Assembly: GCA_034670305.1 (NCBI GenBank)
Contig: JAXMNT010000022.1
Span: 57,545 to 121,544 of the forward strand
Reading direction: 5' to 3'
Source of the DNA: Deltaproteobacteria bacterium
Lineage (GTDB): Bacteria > Myxococcota_A > Polyangia > Polyangiales > Houyiibacteriaceae
DNA: 64,000 nucleotides
In this document: positions 19,815 through 64,000 of the stretch, piece after piece
Numbering within the stretch: position 1 is the stretch's first letter
How the letters are laid out: each line of letters begins with the position of its first letter
Position numbers and translations under genes: made by a program
The notes under the pieces: generated by a model
Seen by the model: only the letters and a program-made list of their open reading frames with translations
Databases searched by the model: none
Told to the model about the DNA's origin: nothing

Positions 19815-21256
19815 CCGCGGTTCGAGCCACGGCTTCGAACGGCGCATGGCGGCGCGCGTTCGACTGGGCGCCGACCACCCCCGCGCTCCGGCTCGCGATG
19901 TTGCGGGTGATCGTCGGCCTCTACGCGACGGTGTACCTATGCGTTCGGCTGCCGCATCTGTGGAGCTATGCGATCGACGACGTCGCGCGCTTTCAGCCGG
20001 TAGGGCTCGCGACCTTCGCGCCCGCGCCGACCTTGCCCACGCTCTACCAGGTCCTCGTGGTCGCGACGCTGGTCTTCTCGGTGCTGTTCTTGCTCGGCGT
20101 TCGGCACCGCTTCGTCGCACCCGTGTTCGCGGCGCTCCTGCTCTGGGTCCTCACCTACTCGAACTCGTGGGGCAAGATCCTCCACACGGACAACCTGTTG
20201 GTCTGGCACGTGTGGGTGCTCGCGTTCGCACCCGCCGCCGACACTCTCTCGTTCGATGCGCGGGGCAAGCCGCTGCCTGCCGACTCGCGCGACTACGGTT
20301 GGGCGGTTCGCCTGATGGCCGCGTTGACGGTGGCGATCTATCTCTTGGCCGGCATCGCGAAGCTCCGGAACAGCGGGTTCGCGTTCGTCGACGGAGAGAC
20401 GCTTCGAAACTTCGTCGCGTTCGGCAACGTTCGGAAGATCGAACTCGGCAGCCACCACTCGCCGATCGGCGCGTACCTCTCCGCGTTCCCAACCTTCTTC
20501 TCCGTGCTCGCGTGGGGCAGCGTGGTGCTCGAACTCGGCGCGCCCGCAGCGCTCTTGCACCCCCGGCTCGGTCGGTGGTGGTCGTTCGGGGTGTGGGGGT
20601 TCCACGTCGGCGTGGTGGTGCTCATGGCCATCGGCTTCTTCTACCAACTCACCTTCGTCGCCTTCGCGCCGTTCTTCCGCGTGGAGCGACTGCTGGAGCG
20701 GCGCGGCGTGCGGTGGCTGAAGCGGTTCGTGCCGGAAGCCGAAACGCAATCGGAAGCGGAAGCGGAAGCAGAAGCGGAAGCGGAAGCGGACCCGGACGCG
20801 GAAGCGGAAGCGGGTGCGGGAGCGGGAGCGGGAGCGGGAGGGGGAGCGGGAGCGGGAGCGGGTGCGGAAGCGGGAGCGGGAGCGGACGCGGAATCCGAAA
20901 CCGACGCCGAAGCCGAAGCCGAAACCGACGCCGAAACCGACGCCGAAGCCGAAACCGAAACCGAAGCCGAAGCCGAAACCGACGCCGACGCCGAAGCCGA
21001 AGCCGAAGCCGAAACCGAAGCCGAAGCCGAAACCGACGCCGAAACCGACGCCGAAGCCGATGCCGATGCCGAAGCCGATACCGACGCCGATGCCGAAGCC
21101 GACGCCGAAGCCGACGCCGATGCCGAAGCCGCTGCCGAAGCCGATGCCGATGCCGACGCCGACGCCGAAGCCGAAGCCGAAGCCGAAGCCGCTGCCGAAG
21201 CCGTTGTCGAAGCCGATGCCGACGTTTCCGATGTCGGCTCCAGGTCCTCTTCCTAG
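19811..21256 (+). CDS. HTTM-domain (vitamin K-dependent gamma-carboxylase-like) membrane protein with C-terminal acidic low-complexity tail
   Basis: [29 protein letters not shown] and FHVG...MAIGF; the last ~170 aa are (E/D/G)-(A/T) dipeptide repeats. Confidence 0.85.
20735..21223 (+). repeat. Hexamer tandem tract (GAAGCG/GGAGCG/GAAGCC/GAAACC/GACGCC/GATGCC), in frame in the HTTM gene
   Basis: About 490 bp of unbroken 6-bp periodicity with block-wise drift of the unit. Confidence 0.95.
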
Positions 21257-23674: not shown

Positions 23675-23923
23675 GCCTTGCGCCTTGCCCTTGCCCTTGC
23701 CCTTGCCCTCGCCCTTGCATCTTCGGCGTCGGCATCGGCTTCGGCGTCGGAATCGGCGTCGGCGTCGGAATCGGCTTCGGCGTCGGCGTCGGCTTCGGCT
23801 TCGGCGTCGGCTTCGGATTCGGATTCGGCGTCGGCATCGGCTTCGGCATCGGCTTCGGCTTCGGAACCAAGGGCAAGGGCAAGGGCAAGGGCAGGGGCAA
23901 GGGCAAGGCAGGGCAGGGCAAGG
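23675..23923. repeat. Palindromic hexamer cassette: (CCCTTG)n arm, (TCGGCN/TCGGAN)n core, (CAAGGG)n arm
   Basis: Left arm 23675-23717 and right arm 23868-23923 are reverse complements (~40-bp stem); core 23721-23866; lies between divergent genes. Confidence 0.92.
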
Positions 23924-25198: not shown

Positions 25199-26592
25199 AG
25201 CACCAACATCCCGTACGGGAAGATCCCGAGCTGCATCGCGACGGCGAGCCCGACGTGAAAGCCCACGCCGAGCAGCAACCAGCCCTCGCGCACCCGCAGC
25301 CAGAGCAGCGCGCGCGACACGCGGCCGAGCGGTTGCCCCCGCGTGCGCTTGCGGCGGGCGAGCAGCGCGAGCCCCATGAACGTGGCGCCGAGTTCGAAGA
25401 CCATCGTGCTGGCGGTGCCGAGCTGCGTGAGCGGATACACGTCGGCGAGCCACGGGAGTTCGAAGCGCGCGAAGTGGGGGTCGTTGAGAATGATGTAGAG
25501 CGCGCTGAAGTCCCCATCCGGCCACCACGGCGACTGCATCTTGTGCAGCCCCGCGGAGAAGTAGATCCACAGCAGCTGGATCACGAGCAGCCGCCGCGGC
25601 CACGCGAGCACGGAGGTTCGTTTCGGGCGCCAGGTCTTGTGACGCCGCCACGCGTCGAACGAGAGGGTCGCGCCGCAATCGCTCAGCGCGAGCAGCACCA
25701 GCGCCGCGCGTAGGGCGACGTCGATCCCGCGGTCCCCCTGCGGCAACATCGCCCCGAGCTGCGCGCTCGCGAGAAGCAGCACCACGGCGGAGCTGCGGGC
25801 GAACACCCCGAACGCCAGCGTGACGCACGAGAGCACCGCCGCGCCAAACACCGCGTACGTGGTCTCGAGTTCGGCGCCGAAAAGCGCATGCGTCCAGATC
25901 GGATCGGGGAACGTGTCCCGGATCCCGAGCGCATGGCTGCTGCTCGGCCCCCACACCGTCCCCACCAGCCCCAGCAGCGCGACGTGCGCAAAATCCGCGA
26001 GCAGCACCAGCGCCACCCCGATCCGCACCCACGCCATCGGCTCCGCCCCCTCCCGCTCCGAACAAAACCCCACCCACCGCGCCCACCGAGACAAGCGGGG
26101 AGCGGCATCGCCTTCGGCATCGGCTTCGGCATCGGCATCGGCATCGGCTTCGGCTTCGGATTCGGATTCGGATTCGGGCTCGGCATCGGCATCGGCATCG
26201 GCATCGGCATCGGCATCGGCATCGGCATCGGCATCGCCGTCGGATCGGGCACGGGCACGGGCACGGGCACGGCCTTCCTCGCCGACGTATTCGGCCGACG
26301 CTGAAGCTGTCTCTGTCTCTGTCTCTGCCTCTGCCTCTGCCTCTGTCTCTGTCTCTGTCTCTGTCTCTGCCTCTGTCTCTGCCTCTGCCTCTGCCTCTGT
26401 CTCCGTCTCTGTCTCTGCCCCTGCCTCTGTCTCTGTCTCTGCCTCTGTCTCTGTCTCTGCCTCTGTCTCTGTCTCTGTCTCTGTCTCTGTCTCTGCCGCT
26501 GTCGCTGCCGCTGCCGCTGTCTCTGTCGCTGCCGCTGCCGCTGCCGCTGCCGCTGCCGCTGTCTCTGCCGCTGCCTCTTCCTCCTCCGTCAC
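25114..26592 (-). CDS. HTTM-domain membrane protein with N-terminal acidic low-complexity extension
   Basis: MAWVRIGV, LSFDA, WPRRLL, YFSAGLHK, FELG and FHVG...LGIFPY; GTG at 26592 overlaps the partner's stop (GTGA). A downstream start at ATG 26037 is possible. Confidence 0.85.
   Translation of the reverse strand: MTEEEEAAAETAAAAAAAAAAATETAAAAATAAETETETETETEAETETEAETETEAGAETETETEAEAEAETEAETETETETEAEAEAETETETASASAEYVGEEGRARARARARSDGDADADADADADADADADAEPESESESEAEADADADAEADAEGDAAPRLSRWARWVGFCSEREGAEPMAWVRIGVALVLLADFAHVALLGLVGTVWGPSSSHALGIRDTFPDPIWTHALFGAELETTYAVFGAAVLSCVTLAFGVFARSSAVVLLLASAQLGAMLPQGDRGIDVALRAALVLLALSDCGATLSFDAWRRHKTWRPKRTSVLAWPRRLLVIQLLWIYFSAGLHKMQSPWWPDGDFSALYIILNDPHFARFELPWLADVYPLTQLGTASTMVFELGATFMGLALLARRKRTRGQPLGRVSRALLWLRVREGWLLLGVGFHVGLAVAMQLGIFPYGMLVLYPAFFSPSEWPPRPLAWLSARRARRRA
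26103..26578. repeat. Composite hexamer tract: (TCGGCA/TCGGAT)n, (GGGCAC)4, (GTCTCT/GCCTCT)n, (GCCGCT)n
   Basis: Visible 6-bp periodicity in four blocks; stop-free in the HTTM frame. Confidence 0.95.
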
Positions 26593-30442: not shown

Positions 30443-30666
30443 GCTGCCGCTGCCGCTGCCGCTGTCGCTGCCGCTGCCGCTGTCTCTGCCGCTGCAGCTG
30501 CGCTGTCGCTGGCGCTGTAGCTGTCTCCGCCGCCGTCTCTGCCACTGCCGCTGTCGCTGCCGCTGCCGCTGTCTCTGCCGCTGCCGCTGTAGCTGCCGCT
30601 GCCGCTGCCGCTGTCTCCGCCGCCGTCTCTGCCGCCGTCTCTGCCGCTGTCTCTGCCGCTGCCGCT
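30443..30666. repeat. Intergenic hexamer tract (GCCGCT/GTCGCT/GTCTCT)n
   Basis: 6-bp periodicity between convergent genes; shares a 31-mer with 26495-26525. Confidence 0.93.
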
Positions 30667-35100: not shown

Positions 35101-35174
35101 CCGGGCGCGAAAGCGCCCGGCTACCCTTGCCCGTGCCCTTGCCTTTGCCCGTGCCCTCCCGTGCCCTGCCCCTG
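35097..35174. repeat. Perfect hairpin plus solo (CCCTTG/CCCGTG)n arm between convergent genes
   Basis: TAGCCGGGCGC-GAAA-GCGCCCGGCTA at 35098-35123, then an arm matching the element arm at 45913-45945 at 31/33 positions. Confidence 0.8.
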
Positions 35175-41980: not shown

Positions 41981-42052
41981 CTTCTGCTTCTGCTTCTGCT
42001 TCTGCTTCTGCTTCTGCTTCTGCTTCTGCTTCTGCTTCTGCTTCTGCTTCTG
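41981..42052. repeat. Perfect microsatellite (CTTCTG)12
   Basis: 72 bp, 12 exact copies, intergenic. Confidence 0.97.
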
Positions 42053-42055
42053 CGC

Positions 42056-44011: not shown

Positions 44012-45823
44012 ATGCGGCATTGGCTTTCGACTTGGTGTGTGGGCGTACTGGTGGTGGGATCTCTCGGAGGCTGCGCGAGCGAGCCGGTCGAGGCGATCGA
44101 GTCACCGATCATCAACGGGTCCCGCGAGACGCGGGCGGAGTACGTGGTCGCGGTGGTGAACCTCGGCCGCGCGGGCGCCGGCGGGTTGTGCAGCGGCACC
44201 ATGATCGGTCCGTACGCGGTGCTCACCGCGAAACACTGTGTGTACCAGGACGACGCCAGCGGCCGCTCGGTGGCGGTGCCGCTGAGTGACCTGCTGATCG
44301 TGCGCGGGCACGACGTCATCACCGACGACCCGACCGGCGTGGTCGACACGATGGCCGCATTCGAAGTGCGCACCACTTCGGGCGCGTACGCCGACTCCGA
44401 TCTCGAGAATGGCCGCGACATCGCGGTCATCCTTCTGCCGCGTGCCTTTCCGGGCATCCCGACCCGGCGCGTGGGCACGGCACTGCCCGACATCGGCGCC
44501 GCGGCGGTGATCATCGGGTTCGGCAAGACCAACCCCAGCTCCTCCGCCGAAGGAGACTCCGGACTCAAGTTCAGCGGCAACACACGGATCGAAGATCGCG
44601 GGTCGCGGCTCATCCTGACCCGAGGCACCGCCAACACGTGCCAGGGCGACAGCGGCGGTCCGCTCCTGGTCGACAACCGCGTGGTGGGTGTGACGAGCTT
44701 CGGCATCGGGGGCTGTGGCTCGCGTAGCCAGCACTACTTCACGTCCGTGCCGCAGCACCTGACGATGATCAACAGTGCGCTCGACTTCGAGCCGGCGTGC
44801 GAAGAGAGCACCGAGGTCTGCGACTCGATCGACAACGACTGCGACGATCTCGTCGACGAAGGCTGCACGCTGATCGGGGACCCGTGCGCGCGCGACGAAG
44901 AGTGTTCGCGTGGACGCTGCGACGACACGCCCTCCGGTCGGGTCTGCGTGCGCGACTGCGATCCACGGTCCGCGATTCTGGTCTGTCCGCCGAGCTTCCA
45001 TTGCTCCGCGACGGCCTGCGGCGAAGGCCGCTGTCTCACCGGAGAAGGCAGCGCGCCCGACGGGACTGCGTGTGCGATGGACATCGAGTGCGCATCGGGC
45101 CGATGCGCCGAGGTGAACGGCAGCACGATCTGCGCGCGCCAATGCGACCCGGCGGCAGGCGACTGCGGTGGCGGCACGCTCTGCGAGTCCGACGGAACCT
45201 GCGGCAGCTGCATTCCGCCCGAGCTCTCCACCATGCCCCGACCCTTCGGTGCGCCCTGCGACGCGGACGGCGACTGCGCCAGCATGGACTGCGCGATGGG
45301 GGAGGGCGGGGAGCCCTTCTGCACCGAAGCGTGCACCGAAGACTCGTGCTCGGACGGGTACCACTGCCGGGAGGCGCGCTGCGTACGCGGCGACGCAGTG
45401 ACGCCCGGCGAACCCTGCGTACACACCGACGACTGCGCGGAGGGCGAGTGCGTGGGCATCGACGGCGACATGGTCTGCGCGTTGGACTGCAGCGCCGACT
45501 GCGAAGCGGGCTTCGAGTGCGAACCGACGACCGACGGAGATCGCTGCGTGCCGGCCGGCGTGGGGCTCGGCGAACCGTGCATGAACCACGGCGTCTGCCG
45601 CACCGGCTTGTGTGCGGGCACCTGCACCCGCATCTGCGACACGAGCCCCTGTCCGGAGGGCTTCGACTGTGTGCCCGCGGGCGAAGTGAGCGGATGTTTC
45701 CCAGCCGCCGAGCCGATGATGCCGACCGAGAGCGGCGGCTGCGCAGTGGGCGCATCGGGCGCGCGCGGAAGTCTGCTGGCGCTTGCGTTTGGCATGCTGC
45801 TGATGCGCCGACGCCGGAGCTGA
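44012..45823 (+). CDS. Trypsin-like (S1) serine protease with Cys-rich repeats and MYXO-CTERM-like sorting signal
   Basis: IING, LTAKHC, DIAV and CQGDSGGP; long Cys-rich region; GGCAVG...LLMRRRRS. Confidence 0.92.
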   Translation: MRHWLSTWCVGVLVVGSLGGCASEPVEAIESPIINGSRETRAEYVVAVVNLGRAGAGGLCSGTMIGPYAVLTAKHCVYQDDASGRSVAVPLSDLLIVRGHDVITDDPTGVVDTMAAFEVRTTSGAYADSDLENGRDIAVILLPRAFPGIPTRRVGTALPDIGAAAVIIGFGKTNPSSSAEGDSGLKFSGNTRIEDRGSRLILTRGTANTCQGDSGGPLLVDNRVVGVTSFGIGGCGSRSQHYFTSVPQHLTMINSALDFEPACEESTEVCDSIDNDCDDLVDEGCTLIGDPCARDEECSRGRCDDTPSGRVCVRDCDPRSAILVCPPSFHCSATACGEGRCLTGEGSAPDGTACAMDIECASGRCAEVNGSTICARQCDPAAGDCGGGTLCESDGTCGSCIPPELSTMPRPFGAPCDADGDCASMDCAMGEGGEPFCTEACTEDSCSDGYHCREARCVRGDAVTPGEPCVHTDDCAEGECVGIDGDMVCALDCSADCEAGFECEPTTDGDRCVPAGVGLGEPCMNHGVCRTGLCAGTCTRICDTSPCPEGFDCVPAGEVSGCFPAAEPMMPTESGGCAVGASGARGSLLALAFGMLLMRRRRS

Positions 45824-45835
45824 CCACCTCCGCCG

Positions 45836-45863
45836 GAGCGCCAGTCCTGAAGGGCTGGCGCTC
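45836..45863 (+). terminator. GC-rich hairpin after the protease gene
   Basis: GAGCGCCAGTCC-TGAA-GGGCTGGCGCTC; only a weak U-tract follows. Confidence 0.5.
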
Positions 45864-45866
45864 TTG

Positions 45867-46126
45867 CTAGCAGGCTGCTGAAGAACGCCCGCAGGGCGTT
45901 CTCGCAGCCTGCCCCTTGCCCCTGCCCTTGCCTTTGCCCTTGCCCGCGGATCAGCGGTCAAATCGCTTGATCAGCGCGACGAGCATCGCGACGACGCTTC
46001 GTCCGCTGGGCATCGGGCTCCGATTCGCGGCCTCGCCGTCGCGAAACACACGGCGTCCACGACGCGGGCAAGGGCACGGGCAAGGGCAACGGCAAGGGAG
46101 CAGATCGCTTTTCAGCGACCTGCTAG
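45867..46126. mobile_element. MITE-like element (copy 1) with CTAG boundaries, 14-bp imperfect TIRs and internal hexamer inverted arms
   Basis: CTAG|CAGGCTGCTGAAGA ... TTTTCAGCGACCTG|CTAG; near-identical second copy starts at 63877. Confidence 0.85.
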
Positions 46127-47008
46127 CTCCAGCCAGCGCTGGAGGAACGCCGCGATCGGCTCGAGGGGTCGCGGAGACTCCACCGGGGTCACGCCCCCTT
46201 CGTGGATCACGACCAGCTGGGTGCGCGGTTCGTCTTTGGCGTAGCCGACCGGCCAGAGGGCGGCCCGCATGGCGCCGTGGCGCGGGACCTGCGTCGTGGT
46301 GGTCGGCTTTCCGGTCGCGGAGCTCCGCATCGTGGCGCCCGCCGGCGAGGTCTCGAGCAACCATTCGGTTTGCCAGCCTTGCTGGAAACGGCGGAAGGTC
46401 CCCAGCAAGAGTTCGCGCGGCTCACGAAACAACATCGCCAGCGCGGTGAATGGAAACGCCGCGAGACACAGCGCGCCGAGCGCCACCGCGGCCCACATCG
46501 CCGGCGGGTGTGCGCGTGCTTGCCGCACCGCGGTGCCGTCGCCACTGACTTCGAACCCGGCCGCTTCGAGTTCTTCTCGAGGCACCCGTGCCGGTGCGTC
46601 GCGGTAGCCGCCACGGGATGGCGCAAGCTCGGCGGCGGTCCACGAGACACACAGCGTCTCCTCCCGCCAGAGCTCGAAGACCGCTCCGATGCGGCTGGCG
46701 GCACGCAGGGCGGCGGGGATCACGGCGTTCTCGAACTCGGGCTCGCAGATCGGGTGGTTCTCGAACGAACCGAGCACCCGTTCGCCATCGAGCGCGACCA
46801 CGCGCATGCCCGGGTGTCCTCGTCGTCCGGAGCGCTCGTCTCCAACGGCATCCCCACCGCTGAACTCGTCCACGACGACATCGGCCACATGCCCGAGGGC
46901 GGACCCTGCCGTGTGGCGCCTGAACCGGACCACGCAGATCCGAGTGGCCGCCTCGAGTGCATTCAACGCAGCGCAGATCTCTGTGCGACGGGCGGCATCG
47001 TCTTTCAC
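46112..47008 (-). CDS. Hypothetical membrane protein
   Basis: GGYRDAP motif followed by a TM segment; the stop codon lies inside the element's TIR. Confidence 0.55.
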   Translation of the reverse strand: MKDDAARRTEICAALNALEAATRICVVRFRRHTAGSALGHVADVVVDEFSGGDAVGDERSGRRGHPGMRVVALDGERVLGSFENHPICEPEFENAVIPAALRAASRIGAVFELWREETLCVSWTAAELAPSRGGYRDAPARVPREELEAAGFEVSGDGTAVRQARAHPPAMWAAVALGALCLAAFPFTALAMLFREPRELLLGTFRRFQQGWQTEWLLETSPAGATMRSSATGKPTTTTQVPRHGAMRAALWPVGYAKDEPRTQLVVIHEGGVTPVESPRPLEPIAAFLQRWLELAGR

Positions 47009-48116: not shown

Positions 48117-49982
48117 CTACTTCCTGGCGGCCCAGGCCCGGCTCGTGGCGACGACCGCCGCGAAGCCGCCGACCCCGATGAGTTCGTACGCCCACTCGGG
48201 GAACAGCCCCGTCAGCACCGCGGCCACCGCGAGGCAGGCGGTCCCCCACCAGAGCCGTTTGTCCAGCGTGATCGCAAGCGCCGAGAAGCAGTACGTGTAG
48301 AGCAGCGGCGTGAGCGCGAGCGCGTGGTCGACGGGCAGGTCGGAGACGAACGCGGACAACCAGAACAACTCGACCGCGACCGCGGTGGCGATCAGCCCTC
48401 CGTAGAGGCGCCGGTTCGCCCGGTTGAAGAAGAGCGTGTCTCGGCGGAGGTAGCCGATCGGAATGAAGGTGGCGACGAGCAGCACCCCTTCGGTCAGAAG
48501 CTCTGGGTAGCCGATCGGAAAGATGTCGGTCCGGGTCAACGCGCCGAACAAGACGTTGGTGACGGCCCACACGAACCCGAGCGCCAGGAACATGCGCCGC
48601 CGGTCGACTTGCCCGAGCGTGATGTCCAGCTCGCGGCTCATCTGCTCGAGCTGCGCCAGATGTTTCGCGCGGTCGGCAACCTCTCGCTGCAGCGCGGTGA
48701 GCGCGTCTCGTTGCCGCGTGGACGGCTGCCGCATTCTCGTCAGCGCCGCGGCCGCTTCGTCGGGGCGCCGGCGCGCGATCGCTCGGTCGAAACGGGCGGC
48801 CGCGATCGCGTCTTCCAGTGCATCGATCTCGTCGCTCTGAGGCCACTGCTGACGTGCGTAGACCGCGGCGAACTCGCACTCGAGAAACCGCGGTTCGACG
48901 AGCGCGTCGCTCGCCGCCTCGAGCCCCGCGATGTGCACGAGGGTGCGGCGCGCCTGTCCGATCAGCCGGTCCACCGCGCGACGATCCAGGAACGTCTCTA
49001 CCGCCGCCCGAAGCGCTTCCACGTTCTCGAACCGGCCGCTGGTCTTGGCGTCGAGGGCGCGGTGCAGGATCGCCACGAGTTCGGCCGGCACCGTCTCGTC
49101 GTAGCGGTGCGGCAGAGACATCAGAGCCGCCGAGAGCTGCAACATCAGCGACTCCCCTTCGTGCGGTTCGGTGCCGGTGACAAGAAAGTGCAGGATGCCG
49201 CCGAGCAGGTACACATCGGTGCGTTCGTCGATGTGCGCGGTGTCGACCGCCACGAGCTCGGGCGCGATGTAGCCAGGCGTGCCGGCGACGCCGAGGATGT
49301 CGGTGGTCTCATGGAGCCACTCTGGGGAGCGTCCCGGCAGACCGCACGCGAGCCCCCAGTCCACGACGTACACCTCTCCGTACGCGCCAAGCATCACGTT
49401 GTCCGGCTTCAGATCGAGGTGCAGCACCCCGCGGCTGTGCGCGAACGCGATCGCCTGACAGACCTTCATGAAGATGCGCAGGTGCCCCTCGAGATCACTG
49501 GGGTCGCAGCCGTGCGCGTCGAGACGCTCGGCCCAACTCTCGCCTTCGATGCGCTTCATGAGCATCGCCGGCGAGTTGCCCGCACGCGCCAACGCGTGGA
49601 CCGGGACGATGTGTGGGTGTTCGAGGGCGCCGCCCACCCACGCTTCCTTCAGCAGCGCCGACACCGAACCGTCGTCGTTCGAGTCGAGCACCGTCTTCAC
49701 CGCGACCGCCCGCCGGAGCGACTGCTGATCCGCTTCGCGCACTTCGCCCATGCCGCCCTTGCCGAGCAGGCGCCCGAGTTCGATCGGCTCCGGGGAGAGC
49801 GCCAAGGCCTGCGCTTCGGACGACGCGTCGGCGAAGAGCGTCTGGCTCTCTGCGAGCGCGTCGCGGCCGCTGGCGACCAACGTGCCATCGCCGCGTTGCA
49901 GTAACGCGTCGGGAGAGAGTCCCCGTGCTTCCCACAGGGTCGCGAGCCGCGCGCTGGCCTCCTCGAGCGGCGCCGCACTCAC
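48117..49982 (-). CDS. Ser/Thr protein kinase with C-terminal multi-TM domain (paralog B)
   Basis: LGKGGMG, VAVK, HLDLKPDN, DWG and GTPGYIAPE; 5-6 C-terminal TM segments; GTGA overlap with paralog A. Confidence 0.9.
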   Translation of the reverse strand: MSAAPLEEASARLATLWEARGLSPDALLQRGDGTLVASGRDALAESQTLFADASSEAQALALSPEPIELGRLLGKGGMGEVREADQQSLRRAVAVKTVLDSNDDGSVSALLKEAWVGGALEHPHIVPVHALARAGNSPAMLMKRIEGESWAERLDAHGCDPSDLEGHLRIFMKVCQAIAFAHSRGVLHLDLKPDNVMLGAYGEVYVVDWGLACGLPGRSPEWLHETTDILGVAGTPGYIAPELVAVDTAHIDERTDVYLLGGILHFLVTGTEPHEGESLMLQLSAALMSLPHRYDETVPAELVAILHRALDAKTSGRFENVEALRAAVETFLDRRAVDRLIGQARRTLVHIAGLEAASDALVEPRFLECEFAAVYARQQWPQSDEIDALEDAIAAARFDRAIARRRPDEAAAALTRMRQPSTRQRDALTALQREVADRAKHLAQLEQMSRELDITLGQVDRRRMFLALGFVWAVTNVLFGALTRTDIFPIGYPELLTEGVLLVATFIPIGYLRRDTLFFNRANRRLYGGLIATAVAVELFWLSAFVSDLPVDHALALTPLLYTYCFSALAITLDKRLWWGTACLAVAAVLTGLFPEWAYELIGVGGFAAVVATSRAWAARK

Positions 49983-52051
49983 GAAGCGGCCTCGCTGTTG
50001 TCGGCGGGCCGGTAGGCGAGACCGACGCTCATGGCGGAGAGCCCGCCGCCGAGCCCGATGATCTCGTACGCCCACTCGGGGTAGACGTTCGCGAGGAGCA
50101 GCGTCGGGATCTGCAAGAGGGGGCCGACAAAGAAGCGCACGTCGACCAGCACCGCGAACGCACCAAACGCGAGCAGGTAGTAGAGCGGGGTCAGGGTCAA
50201 GGCGTGCTGGAACGCGAGGCCGAGTTCGAAACACACGAGCCAGTGCGCTTGCACGACGAAGAAGGTGCAGATGCAGAGACCGAGCACCGCCGCGTTCGCA
50301 TGGTTCTGGAAGATGAGTTTCCGCCGAAAGAACGTGTAGGGCGCGATGAACGCGGCCACCGCGGCGCCGGTCACCCCCATCTCCGCGTACCCGAGCGAGA
50401 GGATCGAGGCGCGCTCGGCGTGTCCCATCGCCAGGTTCACCGCGATGAACACCAGGCCGAGGGCGACGCCGAGACCGCGCCGCATCTTGCTGCCCACCTG
50501 CAGGTCGTGGTCGTGTTCGAGGCGCTCCAGTTTCCGGACGTGCGCGGCCCGGGTGCGCTCGCGGGCGCGCAACGCGTCGAGGTCGCGGGTCAGCTCCGGG
50601 TGGGGGGTGCGCAGTTCTCCGACGTAGGCCTCGGCGAGCTCCGCGCGTTCGGCGCCGATCGCCCACCGCGCCATCGCGTGGTGCAGCCGTTCGTGAAGCG
50701 TTTCGAGTTCGGGATGTTCGGGCCACGCTTCGGCGGCGGCGCTCAACGCGAAGCGGCTCGAGACGAATGCGTCGCGCACGGTGGACTGCGCGAGGTCCAT
50801 CTTCGCGTCGGCCTGGGTCGCTGCGGCCTGAGTCTCTGCGGCCTGCTGTACAACGGACCGGTCGGCGGCGGCTTCGACGGTGGCGAGCCCGCGCCTGCAC
50901 ACGTCGAGCAACTCGAGGGTCGACCTGTGTTCGAGGAAGGACTCGACCGCCTCCCGCAACGCGTTCACCGACGCGAAGCGCGCAGCCGGATCTCGATGCA
51001 TCGCGCGGTGCAGGATGGCGGCGAGTTCGTCTGGGAGCGCCTCGTAGTCGCACGGCTCGCTGAGGAACGCTTTGTAGAGGCGACCGAGGATGTGCGGCGC
51101 GCGGTGCGGCGGTTGCCCGGTGACGATCTCGTGGAGGATCGCGCCCATCAGGTAGACGTCGGAGTGCGCCGCGATCTCGGCGCCGACCCCCTTGGCGAGT
51201 TCGGGCGCCATGTACTCCGGTGTCCCGGCGACGCGGGCGATGCCGGACGCGCGTGGGAGCCAGTCCGGCGCGCCCTCCATGCCAGCGGCAAGACCCCAGT
51301 CCACCAGGTACACCTCGCCGAATGCGCCAAGCATGACGTTCTGCGGTTTGAGATCGAGGTGCAGCACCCCGCGGCTGTGCGCGTAGGCAACGGCGTGGCA
51401 CACCTGGATGAACACACGCAGTTCGCTCTCGAGATCGACGCCGCGCGCGCTCGACCGCTCGGGCGCCTCGGTCTCTTGCATCTCGGTGGCGGATTCTGGA
51501 TCGACCTCAGGCGCGCGGAAGGCGCCGGGCACCGAACCGCGGTCGAAGGTACGAAGCCGCTCCTGCCACGAGTCGCCCTCGACGCGTTTCATGACGACCG
51601 AGACGCCGAACTCGTGTGGCGCCAGCGCGTGGACCGGCACCAGACCTGGGTGCTCCAGGGTGCCGCCGACCCACGCTTCTTTGAGGAGCCCCGCGAGCGC
51701 GCCGCTGGTGCCCGGACCATGCAGCGATTTGACCGCGACTTCCCTGCGCAGCGAGGGCTGCACGCCCACCTGGACGACCCCCATGCCGCCGCGTCCGATC
51801 ACCTCGCCGAGCACCACCGCTTCGCCGAGCCGGGCGCCGAACGCCGCGGTGCGTTGGCCGTCGGGGGCGGCGAGGGTCTCCGAGTCGATCGAGAGGTGCC
51901 GGTCGGAAGCCACCAGGGTGTCGTCGTCGCGCAGCTCCAGACTCGATGGCGAGATGCCCTGCTCGAGCCAGACCGAGGTCAGCGCCTCCATGCCTTCGGT
52001 CGGCGCCCCCAGCGTCGCCAACTCGGGACCGTCGTGTTCTGGCGTCGACAC
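49979..52051 (-). CDS. Ser/Thr protein kinase with C-terminal multi-TM domain (paralog A)
   Basis: IGRGGMG, VAVK, HLDLKPQN, DWG and GTPEYMAPE; 5-6 C-terminal TM segments. Confidence 0.9.
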   Translation of the reverse strand: MSTPEHDGPELATLGAPTEGMEALTSVWLEQGISPSSLELRDDDTLVASDRHLSIDSETLAAPDGQRTAAFGARLGEAVVLGEVIGRGGMGVVQVGVQPSLRREVAVKSLHGPGTSGALAGLLKEAWVGGTLEHPGLVPVHALAPHEFGVSVVMKRVEGDSWQERLRTFDRGSVPGAFRAPEVDPESATEMQETEAPERSSARGVDLESELRVFIQVCHAVAYAHSRGVLHLDLKPQNVMLGAFGEVYLVDWGLAAGMEGAPDWLPRASGIARVAGTPEYMAPELAKGVGAEIAAHSDVYLMGAILHEIVTGQPPHRAPHILGRLYKAFLSEPCDYEALPDELAAILHRAMHRDPAARFASVNALREAVESFLEHRSTLELLDVCRRGLATVEAAADRSVVQQAAETQAAATQADAKMDLAQSTVRDAFVSSRFALSAAAEAWPEHPELETLHERLHHAMARWAIGAERAELAEAYVGELRTPHPELTRDLDALRARERTRAAHVRKLERLEHDHDLQVGSKMRRGLGVALGLVFIAVNLAMGHAERASILSLGYAEMGVTGAAVAAFIAPYTFFRRKLIFQNHANAAVLGLCICTFFVVQAHWLVCFELGLAFQHALTLTPLYYLLAFGAFAVLVDVRFFVGPLLQIPTLLLANVYPEWAYEIIGLGGGLSAMSVGLAYRPADNSEAAS

Positions 52052-52154
52052 CGACCGACCATACCGAACTCGACTCGGATCGGGGCCCGCGAATGTGTTT
52101 GCTCGAACGTCGCCCCCCTCGCGTCGCAGGCGGCCGAAGGGGTACCCTCGACCG

Positions 52155-52973
52155 ATGACCTTCCAGTTTCCCTGGCGGCCGCTCGCGTGTTGGCTCGCGG
52201 TGTCGGCAGTTCTCAGCACAGCTGCCGTCCGAGCCGACGTCGAAGCGGAGGTCGCGATCGCCCAGATCGACGAACGCCTGGCGATCGATCCGCAAGACGT
52301 GGCGCTGCTCGCCGAGCGGGCGCGGCTGCACGCCGAGATCGGGCAGTTCGACCACGCGATGGCCGATCTGGACCTGGCGACGACGCTGGCGCCCGACAAC
52401 TCCAGTCTGCGGGTTGCCCGCGCCCAGCTCTTCGTGGCGCTTGGCCAGGAGACCGCCGCGCTGGCAGAACTCGACATCGCGCTCGACCTCGAGGACTCGT
52501 TCTCGGCGCGGGCGCTCCGGGCGGCCCTCCGCGAGGCGGACGGACGCTTCGCAGAGTCACTCGAAGACTACGACGCGGCGCTCTCGCGCGCCGATGCGAT
52601 CGATCTGCACCTCGGGCGTGCGCGTGTGTTGCGCCACCTCGGTCGGCTCGATGTCGCCGCTGCCGAACTGCAGCGCGCGGTGGTTCGTCTGCGGGGCGCA
52701 GCGACGTTGCGGCTGGCGCTCGTGGAGGTGCTCGACGAACTCGGACGACACACCGAGGCGCTTCGGCAGATCGACGAAGCGCGTGCGGGACTCCGGGTCC
52801 AGACCCGCTGGCTCCTGAGGCGTGCGAGGCAACTCGACGCGCTCGGTCGGCACGACGAGGCGCGGCGCGAACGCGCGCGTGCGGTGGAAGAGGCCGAAGC
52901 CCGGCTGAGGTCGAGACCGAGCCGAGGGGCCGCCGAGGATCTGGACGCTGCGCGCCAGGAGGTGGGCCGATGA
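52155..52973 (+). CDS. Secreted TPR protein
   Basis: Signal peptide VRA-D; repeated RA..L...G....A...Y/L..A TPR pattern. Confidence 0.8.
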   Translation: MTFQFPWRPLACWLAVSAVLSTAAVRADVEAEVAIAQIDERLAIDPQDVALLAERARLHAEIGQFDHAMADLDLATTLAPDNSSLRVARAQLFVALGQETAALAELDIALDLEDSFSARALRAALREADGRFAESLEDYDAALSRADAIDLHLGRARVLRHLGRLDVAAAELQRAVVRLRGAATLRLALVEVLDELGRHTEALRQIDEARAGLRVQTRWLLRRARQLDALGRHDEARRERARAVEEAEARLRSRPSRGAAEDLDAARQEVGR

Positions 52974-61175: not shown

Positions 61176-62708
61176 GTGATCCCTCGCCTTGGCTGCGGAC
61201 TCCGGGGTTCGTTCGTGCTGCTCCTGCTGCTGTCCGGCTGGTCGAGTGCTTCCGCACAGAGCCGGAACCTCGACGTGGAGCGTTTCCGGCCGGCCCTCGA
61301 CCACGACGGCTTTCTGGGCATGCAGGGCACCAACATGCCGGGGCCCTGGCGCTGGGACACGGCGCTCTGGCTGAACTACAGCAAGAGTCCGCTGGTCGTC
61401 GTCACGCCCGACGGCGAACGCGGGGTGATCCGGCACCGCTTCGGGGGCGACCTCCAGTTTCAGATCGGGCTCGGGGGACGGATCGCGGTCGCCGCGGATC
61501 TGCCGCTCGTCTTTCACCAGACCACCCGCGCGCGTTTCTTGATGGACGACGGTCCGGCGATCTCTGCGAACGCGTTCGGCGACCCGCGACTGATGTTGCG
61601 GGCGCGCCTCTACGGACGGGACTCGACCGAGCTCAGGGTGCGCAACGAAGGCCCGGGGCTCGCGGTGCTCGCGGGTGTGACCTTGCCGGTCGGCAACGAC
61701 GAGGACTTCGTTGGCGAGGGTCAGGCGACATTCGATCTTCAGCTGACCGCGGACTTCCATGTCTTCGGCGCTGGCGCCGGGATCATGCTCGGCTGGCGCC
61801 ACCGTCCCAACGATCGGTTCGTCGGCACGACGGTGTTTCGTGACGAGCTCTCGTTCGGCATCGCGCTCCGCCTGCCGGTGCCGTGGGTGCCCGGGCTCGG
61901 CGCGATCGTCGAGCTGCGTGGCGCGCTCGATGCCCGCGACCCGTTCTCCCGTGGTCCGCGGACGGCGGTCGAAGGACAGCTCGGCCTGACCTTCCGCTCT
62001 GGCCATGTGAACTACATCGCCGGCACCGGTCTCGGCTTCTCCGCCGGCGTCGGGACGCCCTCGATCCGTGGCCTCTTCGGCGTGCAGTGGTCCCCGCGCG
62101 TCAACGACAAGGACAACGACGGCATCGCGGACGACGACGACGAGTGCCCGCACCTGCCCGAGGACTACGACGACTTCGAAGACGAAGACGGCTGCATGGA
62201 CCCCGACAACGACAACGACTTCGTCCCCGACGTCGACGACCGCTGCCCGAACGAAGAAGCGCTCGAAGGCCAAGACGAAGACGAAGACGGCTGCACCGAC
62301 CCCGCCCCGCCCGCCCCGCCGGTGCAAGAACCGACGACCGAAGAACCGACGACCGAAGAACCGACGACCGAAGAACCGACGACGGACACCGAAGCGCCAG
62401 CAACCGTCGAAGCAGGCACTGGATCGGAGTCGGAATCGGAGTCGGAGTCGGAATCGGGATCGGGATCGGAATCGGAATCGGAATCGGAATCGGAATCGGG
62501 ATCGGGATCGGGATCGGGATCGGGATCGGGATCGGGATCGGGATCGGGATCGGGATCGGGATCGGAATCGGCTTCGGCTTCGGGATCGGCTTCGGAATCG
62601 GCTTCGGAATCGGCTTCGGCTTCAGCTTCGGAATCGGTTTCGGGATCGCATTCAGCCTCGCGTTCGGCCCCGCCACCCCCTCCCTCCCCCAATCGGGGGA
62701 CGCGATGA
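61176..62708 (+). CDS. Outer-membrane beta-barrel protein with thrombospondin type 3 repeats and low-complexity tail (no OmpA C-terminal domain)
   Basis: Signal peptide ASA-Q; ERFRP, FGDPRL and GVGTP..R; DKDNDGIADDDDECP...EDYDDFEDEDGC repeats. Start uncertain. Confidence 0.8.
   Translation: MIPRLGCGLRGSFVLLLLLSGWSSASAQSRNLDVERFRPALDHDGFLGMQGTNMPGPWRWDTALWLNYSKSPLVVVTPDGERGVIRHRFGGDLQFQIGLGGRIAVAADLPLVFHQTTRARFLMDDGPAISANAFGDPRLMLRARLYGRDSTELRVRNEGPGLAVLAGVTLPVGNDEDFVGEGQATFDLQLTADFHVFGAGAGIMLGWRHRPNDRFVGTTVFRDELSFGIALRLPVPWVPGLGAIVELRGALDARDPFSRGPRTAVEGQLGLTFRSGHVNYIAGTGLGFSAGVGTPSIRGLFGVQWSPRVNDKDNDGIADDDDECPHLPEDYDDFEDEDGCMDPDNDNDFVPDVDDRCPNEEALEGQDEDEDGCTDPAPPAPPVQEPTTEEPTTEEPTTEEPTTDTEAPATVEAGTGSESESESESESGSGSESESESESESGSGSGSGSGSGSGSGSGSGSGSESASASGSASESASESASASASESVSGSHSASRSAPPPPPSPNRGTR
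62325..62667 (+). repeat. 15-bp repeat x4 (EEPTT) and hexamer tract (GAATCG/GGATCG/GCTTCG)n, in frame
   Basis: GAAGAACCGACGACC units at 62325-62384; 6-bp periodicity at 62421-62667. Confidence 0.93.
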
Positions 62709-63876: not shown

Positions 63877-64000
63877 CTAGCAGGTTGCTGAAGAACGCCC
63901 GCAGGGCGTTCTCGCAGCCTGCCCCTTGCCCCTGCCCTTGCCTTTGCCCTTGCCCGCGGATCAGCGGTCAGATCGCTTGATCAGCGCGACGAGCATCGCG
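63877..64000. mobile_element. MITE-like element (copy 2), truncated by the window end
   Basis: 122 of 124 nt identical to 45867-45990; begins at CTAG. Confidence 0.85.

Follow-up and report, generated by a model that had tools for sequence, protein, structure and literature searches.

A dispersed palindromic element that may carry the relic of a four-helix-bundle gene

What is a 20-codon open reading frame (ORF) doing in the loop of a long palindrome built from hexamer repeats, and does it descend from a larger gene? The question is raised by an element of about 258 bp (positions 45868–46125) in a 64,000-nucleotide stretch of the genome of a Deltaproteobacteria bacterium (contig JAXMNT010000022.1; this whole stretch is hereafter the window). 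A preliminary description of the locus, made from the letters alone, took the ORF to be the remnant of an internally deleted, stem-enclosed cassette for a four-helix-bundle protein of the kind encoded in 23S rRNA intervening sequences, and likened that protein to Avd, the accessory protein of diversity-generating retroelements (DGRs).

We find that the layout of the element mirrors that of stem-loop cassettes carrying genes of the family PF05635 (23S_rRNA_IVP). The reading we develop here, which we hold with even confidence, is that a non-coding, dispersed palindromic element carries the relic of a four-helix-bundle gene, consisting of its last 12 codons and stop.

Architecture of the element

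The element is a palindrome of three layers: outer inverted ends, hexamer arms and a core. The outer repeat has the consensus CTAGCAGGyyGCTGAA at 45867–45882 and 46126–46111, each with a small hairpin. On the left, the repeat (CTAGCAGGCTGCTGAA, 45867–45882, plus strand; pattern match with 0 mismatches) forms the boundary of the repeated unit, and minimum-free-energy folds place a terminal hairpin at 45870–45912 on the plus strand (GCAGGCTGC ... GCAGCCTGC, with the tip GAACGCCC/GGGCGTTC). The right end (46099–46126, minus strand) comprises the right terminal hairpin and the right outer repeat (CTAGCAGGTCGCTGAA, minus strand, 46126–46111), and is without the 18-nt tip of the left hairpin.

Inside these ends lie the arms, identified as an inverted repeat and by Tandem Repeats Finder at period 6: on the left the C-rich hexamers CCCTTG CCCCTG CCCTTG CCTTTG CCCTTG CCCGCG (45913–45948, plus strand) and on the right the G-rich hexamers CGCGGG CAAGGG CACGGG CAAGGG CAACGG CAAGGG (46063–46098, plus strand). 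They are 36 nt each and 89% complementary, with 114 nt between them. This core (45949–46062) folds into sub-hairpins and holds four stop codons over both strands, one on the plus and three on the minus strand. The fold z-scores of the element region against shuffled sequence are −11.4 and −12.6, so the palindrome is far beyond chance; CCCTTGCCC was seen 14 times where 0.5 would be expected.

The mini-ORF runs along the minus strand of the core (45951–46013), from an ATG at 46013–46011 to a TGA at 45953–45951, and encodes the 20 residues MPSGRSVVAMLVALIKRFDR before its stop (minus-strand reading ...aatcGGAGcccgATG ccc agc ... cga ttt gac cgc TGA). As first described, a GGAG stands 4 nt before the ATG and the stop lies against the arm, at a distance of 2 nt.

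A second copy, of which the left 124 nt fall within the window (63877–64000, plus strand, ending with the window), lies 18 kb from the first and is 98% identical to it, with two differences. One is in the stem of the left hairpin; the other, A>G, is in a predicted hairpin loop of the core and changes F to S in the ORF. The C-terminus that had been described as common to both copies is thus present in copy 2, with that one residue altered: its frame reads AMLVALIKRSDR up to the stop, the start codon being beyond the end of the window. The two copies become similar exactly at CTAGCAGG, beyond which their flanks are unrelated. The outer ends thus belong to the repeated unit, which is about 258 bp long, and the insertion sequence (IS)-type inverted ends proposed at the outset are real. 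A pattern scan of genome contigs with the 19-nt left hairpin tip returned at least 44 loci in unrelated taxa, all taken as chance matches. Among the matches listed, none of 44 loci holds the ORF-coding 21-mer or the arm motif, and a motif screen of them found no four-helix-bundle gene.

The right outer repeat (46111–46126) also gives the neighbouring gene, 46112–47008 on the minus strand, its last four codons and TGA (gag CTA GCA GGT CGC TGA, read ...E L A G R and stop). Insertion of the element therefore appears, from this reading frame, to have rewritten the C-terminus of that gene.

Reference cassettes of the PF05635 family

If the mini-ORF is a relic, intact relatives should show what the parent looked like. 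As a seed we took the annotated 'four helix bundle protein' of the Nostoc PCC 7120 plasmid pCC7120alpha, which retrieved 53 plasmid records by tblastn; a second query, the Gemmatirosa protein, retrieved 31. Fifteen loci were compared (L050–L064), 12 of them cyanobacterial and the others from Gemmatirosa, Azospirillum and Riemerella. All 15 proteins match PF05635 (23S_rRNA_IVP), and 7 match bAvd as well.

In 12 of the 15 loci the ORF is enclosed by inverted arrays of 6–8-nt tandem repeats (match score 12 or more in 11 of them, weak in one), which bears out as real and general the earlier suggestion that four-helix-bundle genes sit in stems. The distance from stop to downstream arm is 0–26 nt in 10 of these 12, a range that includes the 2-nt gap of the window element. 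The arms are (GGGCAGGA)n / (CTCCTGCC)n on the Gemmatirosa plasmid, (AGGGAAC)n / (GTTCCCT)n in Nostoc C052, (AAGGGA)n / (TCCCTT)n in Geminocystis and (ACAGGTG)n / (CACCTGT)n in Anabaena 90. One locus, in an rRNA operon on an Azospirillum lipoferum plasmid (L052), is a genuine intervening sequence of 23S rRNA, and its arms are of the GAGGACG type; the same layout of stem plus tandem repeats occurs outside rRNA in Cyanobacteriota, Gemmatimonadota, Pseudomonadota and Bacteroidota. The remaining three loci have arrays on both sides in direct orientation (L057 and L062) or a downstream array only, beside an ISL3 transposase fragment (L050). In the accessible portions of the literature we found no link between PF05635 genes outside rRNA and inverted tandem-repeat arms.

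Several of the reference loci have features of their own. Three cassettes with flanking arrays (L057:477–836, L060:489–857 and L058:489–845) are co-oriented inside CRISPR-Cas operons; in Pseudanabaena and Anabaena 90 the flanking genes are cas6 and cas4, and in Picosynechococcus they are cas10 and cmr3. A figure legend gives a statistical association of the family with CRISPR (PMC10910872). Upstream of the Gemmatirosa gene (L051:820–915) there is a gene-less hairpin of the same 8-nt units, with a G-rich array, a 15-nt loop and a C-rich array, which may be an empty cassette beside the full one. In Nostoc (L050:3230–3775, and hits H13, H14 and H25), the PCC 7120 gene is present on two plasmids with 100% identity and comes directly after the 3′ end of an ISL3-type transposase frame, and a partial match lies under an annotated ISL3 transposase in Nostoc C057.

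Resemblance of the tail to the last helix

The earlier description had proposed a likeness between the end of the mini-ORF and the last helix of these proteins. When a hidden Markov model (HMM) is built from the 15 proteins and nothing else, its positions 107–116 read 'iskmLvalik' in consensus, and this stretch aligns to VVAMLVALIK of the mini-ORF. The alignment by hhalign is the same and puts the peptide on the C-terminal helix of the family with P = 0.038. In an end-anchored comparison, the k residues that precede the stop were aligned without offset to the final k residues of each of the 15 proteins and scored with BLOSUM62. By this measure the mini-ORF ranks first among 918 window peptides at k = 10, 12, 14 and 16, and is tied in the top three at k = 8. 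Its best partners are the tails RMLSALIKKLEK and RMIIALIKKLQQ, which score 29 each against AMLVALIKRFDR, all read up to the stop. The tails of L050, L051 and L053 score 14, 11 and 8 in the same register; with L055 and L056, this makes five family members that share the register of the mini-ORF to the stop.

Control peptides place this score in context. Among 6278 peptides from the 44 unrelated loci of the pattern scan (median GC 0.68), 12, 2, 1 and 2 reach the score of the mini-ORF at k = 10, 12, 14 and 16, respectively. As the core contains the ends of only four peptides, a score this high in one of them would arise by chance with a probability of about 0.001–0.008. The other frames of the core do not match the family. 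We also considered a fusion junction, with N-terminal codons of the gene joined to the last helix, and rejected it, as the N-terminus is not family-like.

What stands of the proposed likeness is that the tail fits the consensus in the family's own register to the stop; a significant family match did not accompany it. On sequence comparison, the likeness is suggestive and is not proof. The named clusters matched in the ESM Atlas include two of short proteins in which 11% of members carry bAvd (scores 0.85 and 0.84) and one in which 35% carry 23S_rRNA_IVP (0.81); all are below 0.9 and serve as leads only.

Evidence that weighs against a relic

The remaining results weigh against descent from a four-helix-bundle gene. 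Searches against Pfam and NCBIfam at E ≤ 10 returned no family for either the 20-residue or the 52-residue translation, although the Pfam negative says little because the PF05635 model stops 8 residues short of the C-terminus (seen with L055) and most of the matching tail lies outside it. Word-indexed searches of longer proteins and of proteins of similar length (22–72 residues) gave no match, nor did a search of the PDB; tblastn of the peptide against plasmids gave none at E ≤ 10; and the two matches that phmmer found among 1.84 billion representative proteins are both long tandem-repeat artefacts (30 and 7 stretches). A BPP-1-type Avd HMM, built from the close bAvd relatives (64–88% identity) that were all the BPP-1 Avd seed gathered, made no alignment to the frame of the ORF.

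The family HMM itself gives the mini-ORF a domain score of −4.5 bits, rank 409 of 504, and the hhalign alignment has a probability of 1.4%. When the alignment offset is free, the tail falls to rank 9 of 918, the higher scores belonging to proline/arginine-rich low-complexity tails. The match spans only about 12 residues, and the first 8 residues of the mini-ORF rank 407 of 983 against the N-termini of the family. The end-anchored test and its range of lengths were picked after the alignments had been seen, which weakens the test. Lastly, a scan of 40 window ORFs found no PF05635 gene, full-length or otherwise, no PF22296 gene and no transposase.

The polarity of the arms is the main objection. 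In 12 of 12 inverted-arm cassettes, the 5′ arm is G- or purine-rich and the 3′ arm C- or pyrimidine-rich; the lone downstream array of L050 keeps this polarity, and the upstream GACAGAT heptamers described for Coxiella agree with it (PMC4990558). The window element and a second arm pair in the window (23676–23923) are C-rich on the 5′ side (CCCTTG) and G-rich on the 3′ side (CAAGGG), opposite to all 12 cassettes. Inversion of the core cannot account for this, because an inverted repeat keeps its polarity on either strand. Either cassettes of reversed polarity exist in this lineage, or the element has an origin other than a PF05635 cassette. The polarity rule is empirical and its sample small, with 12 of the 15 loci cyanobacterial, most plasmid-borne and not independent of one another.

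The proposal that the parent was an internally deleted, stem-enclosed cassette thus keeps the architecture and the tail likeness on its side, and faces the lack of a significant match, an N-terminal part that is not family-like and the reversed arms.

Alternative explanations

The strongest competitor is that the mini-ORF is a chance ORF in a structure-only repeat, similar to a miniature inverted-repeat transposable element (MITE) or a repetitive extragenic palindromic (REP) sequence and built from the hexamer microsatellites of the genome, the likeness of its tail being coincidental. We regard this as a serious possibility, if one we are inclined to doubt. An ORF of this size is by itself no more than chance, because 983 ATGs in the window are followed by at least 20 sense codons and 73 of these 983 have a Shine–Dalgarno (SD)-like motif upstream. 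The raw material is also at hand: there are at least eight other hexamer tandem arrays in the window, and the arm pair at 23676–23923, (CCTTGC)x7 and (CAAGGG)x10 with the same C-rich 5′ polarity as the element, encloses only another microsatellite, (CTTCGG)x24, with no element core, outer repeat or ORF. A lone C-rich arm of CCCTTG/CCCGTG units (35124–35171, plus strand) lies between two convergent genes and has no partner. By blastn against plasmids, the element matches (CAAGGG)n microsatellites only; these are plain arrays on plasmids of unrelated bacteria, and the three examined (from Novosphingobium, Agrobacterium and Aeromonas) have no paired arm and no annotated four-helix-bundle gene within 2.5-kb flanks. 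The reversed polarity and the failure of every homology search to reach significance are as a structure-only repeat would have them, and the control rate predicts 0.15–1.8 tails this good among the 918 window peptides.

Coincidence has more to explain when position is taken into account. The best four-helix-bundle-like tail of the window is one of the four peptides that end in the arm-enclosed core, it keeps register to the stop with five family members, its stop abuts the arm as in real genes, and the Atlas leads point to the same clan.

It is far less probable, and in our view very unlikely, that translation of the mini-ORF yields an active small peptide, for example a membrane peptide like a type I toxin or a leftover single helix that binds partners of the four-helix-bundle or Avd type. 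The GGAG before the ATG speaks for it, as do the preservation of the tail in both copies except for F to S and the codon usage, with G or C in the third position of 16 of 20 codons (counted by eye) against fractions of 0.78–0.91 in the likely genes of the window. Yet the copies are 98% alike, so that the preserved tail is uninformative about selection; the sole coding difference is a radical one; the ATG and the SD motif are buried in predicted structure; and no promoter-like site was found in 45700–46250. Neither the proteins of 22–72 residues nor the 1.84 billion representatives contain a homologue. The type I toxin that had been named as an alternative fails on sequence: the hydrophobic run VVAMLVALI is 9 residues only, too short to span a membrane, and the mini-ORF is therefore judged not to be such a toxin. 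The peptide is not expected to be functional and should not be annotated as a gene.

That the ORF is the Avd-like accessory gene of a DGR is effectively refuted: only a clan-level kinship of PF05635 with bAvd speaks for it (described in a review, PMC10053308, and seen in the 7 of 15 family members that match bAvd), whereas BLASTP of the peptide against BPP-1 Avd gave nothing at E ≤ 100, the Avd HMM did not align, the 40 scanned ORFs include no reverse transcriptase and 20 residues cannot form a four-helix bundle. Further searches around Avd were also negative, with no tblastn match of Avd to plasmids or of the Gemmatirosa four-helix-bundle protein to phages, and no annotated Avd-sized gene in phage p00 (BK010646).

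Proposed history of the element

Under the relic reading, the mini-ORF would be the decayed 3′ end of a PF05635 gene whose other approximately 100 codons have been lost, so that we infer descent from a full-length gene. The element would propagate as DNA, mobilized either through its outer ends by a transposase supplied in trans or by whatever mechanism moves the cassettes themselves. If the element has a role today, it may be as a long hairpin at the 3′ ends of the convergent mRNAs, serving as a transcript-end structure or as a substrate of RNase III. As judged from its sequence, the product is not a functional four-helix-bundle protein, because it has 20 residues and none of the invariant core columns of the family (P31, Q41, S48, N52, E55 and E78, taken from alignment A3). 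The F to S change between copies, in a hairpin loop, fits sequence without constraint at the protein level.

Comparison with known systems

Among the closest parallels are the 23S rRNA intervening sequences with an S23p/PF05635 ORF (Coxiella, Leptospira, Xanthomonas and L052). These share with the window element a stem of inverted arms of short tandem units, an ORF in the loop, a stop near the 3′ arm and an ORF prone to decay and internal deletion (PMC4990558). The Coxiella intervening sequence is described as an S23p ORF in a stem-loop with tandem heptamers upstream, which is decaying and has a 176-bp deletion in one strain (PMC4990558). Before collapse, the loop of the window element would have been similar in size, at 114 nt plus about 300 nt compared with the 428-nt element of Coxiella. 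Unlike these intervening sequences, the window element lies outside an rRNA gene, between convergent protein-coding genes, and it has reversed polarity, extra outer inverted ends with hairpins and an ORF of 20 codons. No Rfam family reached its gathering score in 45700–46250; five weak matches at E ≤ 10 lie far below it, and none is rRNA.

With the plasmid cassettes outside rRNA (L051 and L053–L064), the window element has in common the inverted 6–8-nt arrays that enclose the ORF, a stop that abuts the downstream arm and the last-helix consensus mLvalik. The (AAGGGA)n / (TCCCTT)n units of Geminocystis are also similar in kind to its own. The cassettes differ in having an intact gene of 116–138 residues and a G-rich 5′ and C-rich 3′ arm, and several of them are co-oriented inside operons.

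Intergenic arrays without such genes are known as well. The GGGAATC arrays of Xanthomonas and the heptamer repeats of Nostoc are intergenic simple-sequence arrays, often in convergent pairs able to form stem-loops, and 70 pairs of inverted GGGAATC arrays are reported for X. campestris and 75 for X. axonopodis (PMC4692102). They differ from the window element in their heptamer unit and in being discussed as quadruplex-forming, and the sections available describe no outer inverted ends or shared core (PMC4692102). The main text of that paper contains no occurrence of S23, four-helix or intervening-sequence proteins.

In form, the element also resembles a MITE: it is about 258 bp long, has terminal inverted repeats and strong hairpin potential, occurs in at least two near-identical copies with unrelated flanks, has inserted at a gene end and lies among 40 window ORFs that include no transposase. 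It departs from a MITE in that its interior consists of tandem-repeat arms, not of decayed IS sequence, and that no cognate IS is known. A target-site duplication would be indistinguishable from the repeat, because the terminal CTAG is its own reverse complement.

Genomic setting

The window has a GC content of 68.7%, and stop codons average one per 100 codons. Its genes include those for PBP1, histidine kinases, sigma-54 activators, several Ser/Thr kinases, LigA, a PilZ-Hsp70 protein and HTTM proteins. The many Ser/Thr kinases, the sigma-54 activators and the PilZ-Hsp70 protein suggest a myxobacterium. The element lies in a 288-nt gap between two convergent protein-coding genes: on the left a trypsin-domain protease gene (44012–45823, plus strand), whose own hairpin at 45836–45863 precedes the composite palindrome, and on the right the uncharacterised gene whose end the outer repeat supplies, which has no Pfam match. 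The protease contains a long repeat region rich in Cys, and its C-terminal end runs through a Gly/Ala-rich segment and a hydrophobic stretch to RRRRS, an ending that may resemble a myxobacterial C-terminal sorting tag.

Elsewhere, stretches of 30–150 nt with 80–92% identity recur about 1940 nt apart (48165–49500 and 50045–51440), which suggests two tandem paralogous genes, the second interval overlapping the kinase gene 49979–52477. Long hexanucleotide tandem arrays of differing units are unusually abundant in the window, mostly at gene ends or between genes. Besides the sites at 23676–23923 and 35124–35171, arrays lie at 20733–21222, 26103–26578, 30443–30666, 41981–42053 and 62421–62648, and the units include CGGAAG/GAAGCC (about 76 units), CGGCAT (x24), CTGTCT (x45), GCTGCC (x37), CTTCTG (x12, perfect) and GGATCG (x32). 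Several of these hexamers look like the pyrimidine-rich arms of PF05635 cassettes elsewhere.

Discussion

How 23S rRNA intervening sequences arose and move, and what their S23p/four-helix-bundle ORFs do, are described as questions open for decades (PMC4990558). The present element invites a broader proposal, to which we give distinctly less credence than to the relic itself and which we think rather unlikely as it stands: PF05635 genes would be the cargo of a widespread, hitherto undescribed class of stem-loop cassettes with inverted 6–8-nt arrays, the 23S rRNA intervening sequences would be copies that landed in rRNA, and the window element would be a hexamer form of reversed polarity that, in this GC-rich genome, lost its gene, acquired outer inverted ends and spreads as a MITE. 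If the cassette reading is true, further copies lie within operons, some of them between cas genes.

For annotation, the mini-ORF should not be called a gene, yet the element appears to rewrite the 3′ end of a neighbouring one. Were derivatives that have lost the gene also to multiply, as small palindromic repeats, the cassette would become a tractable mobile unit, and its arms, polarity rule, insertion sites and decay series would then be open to computational survey and to RNase III mapping.

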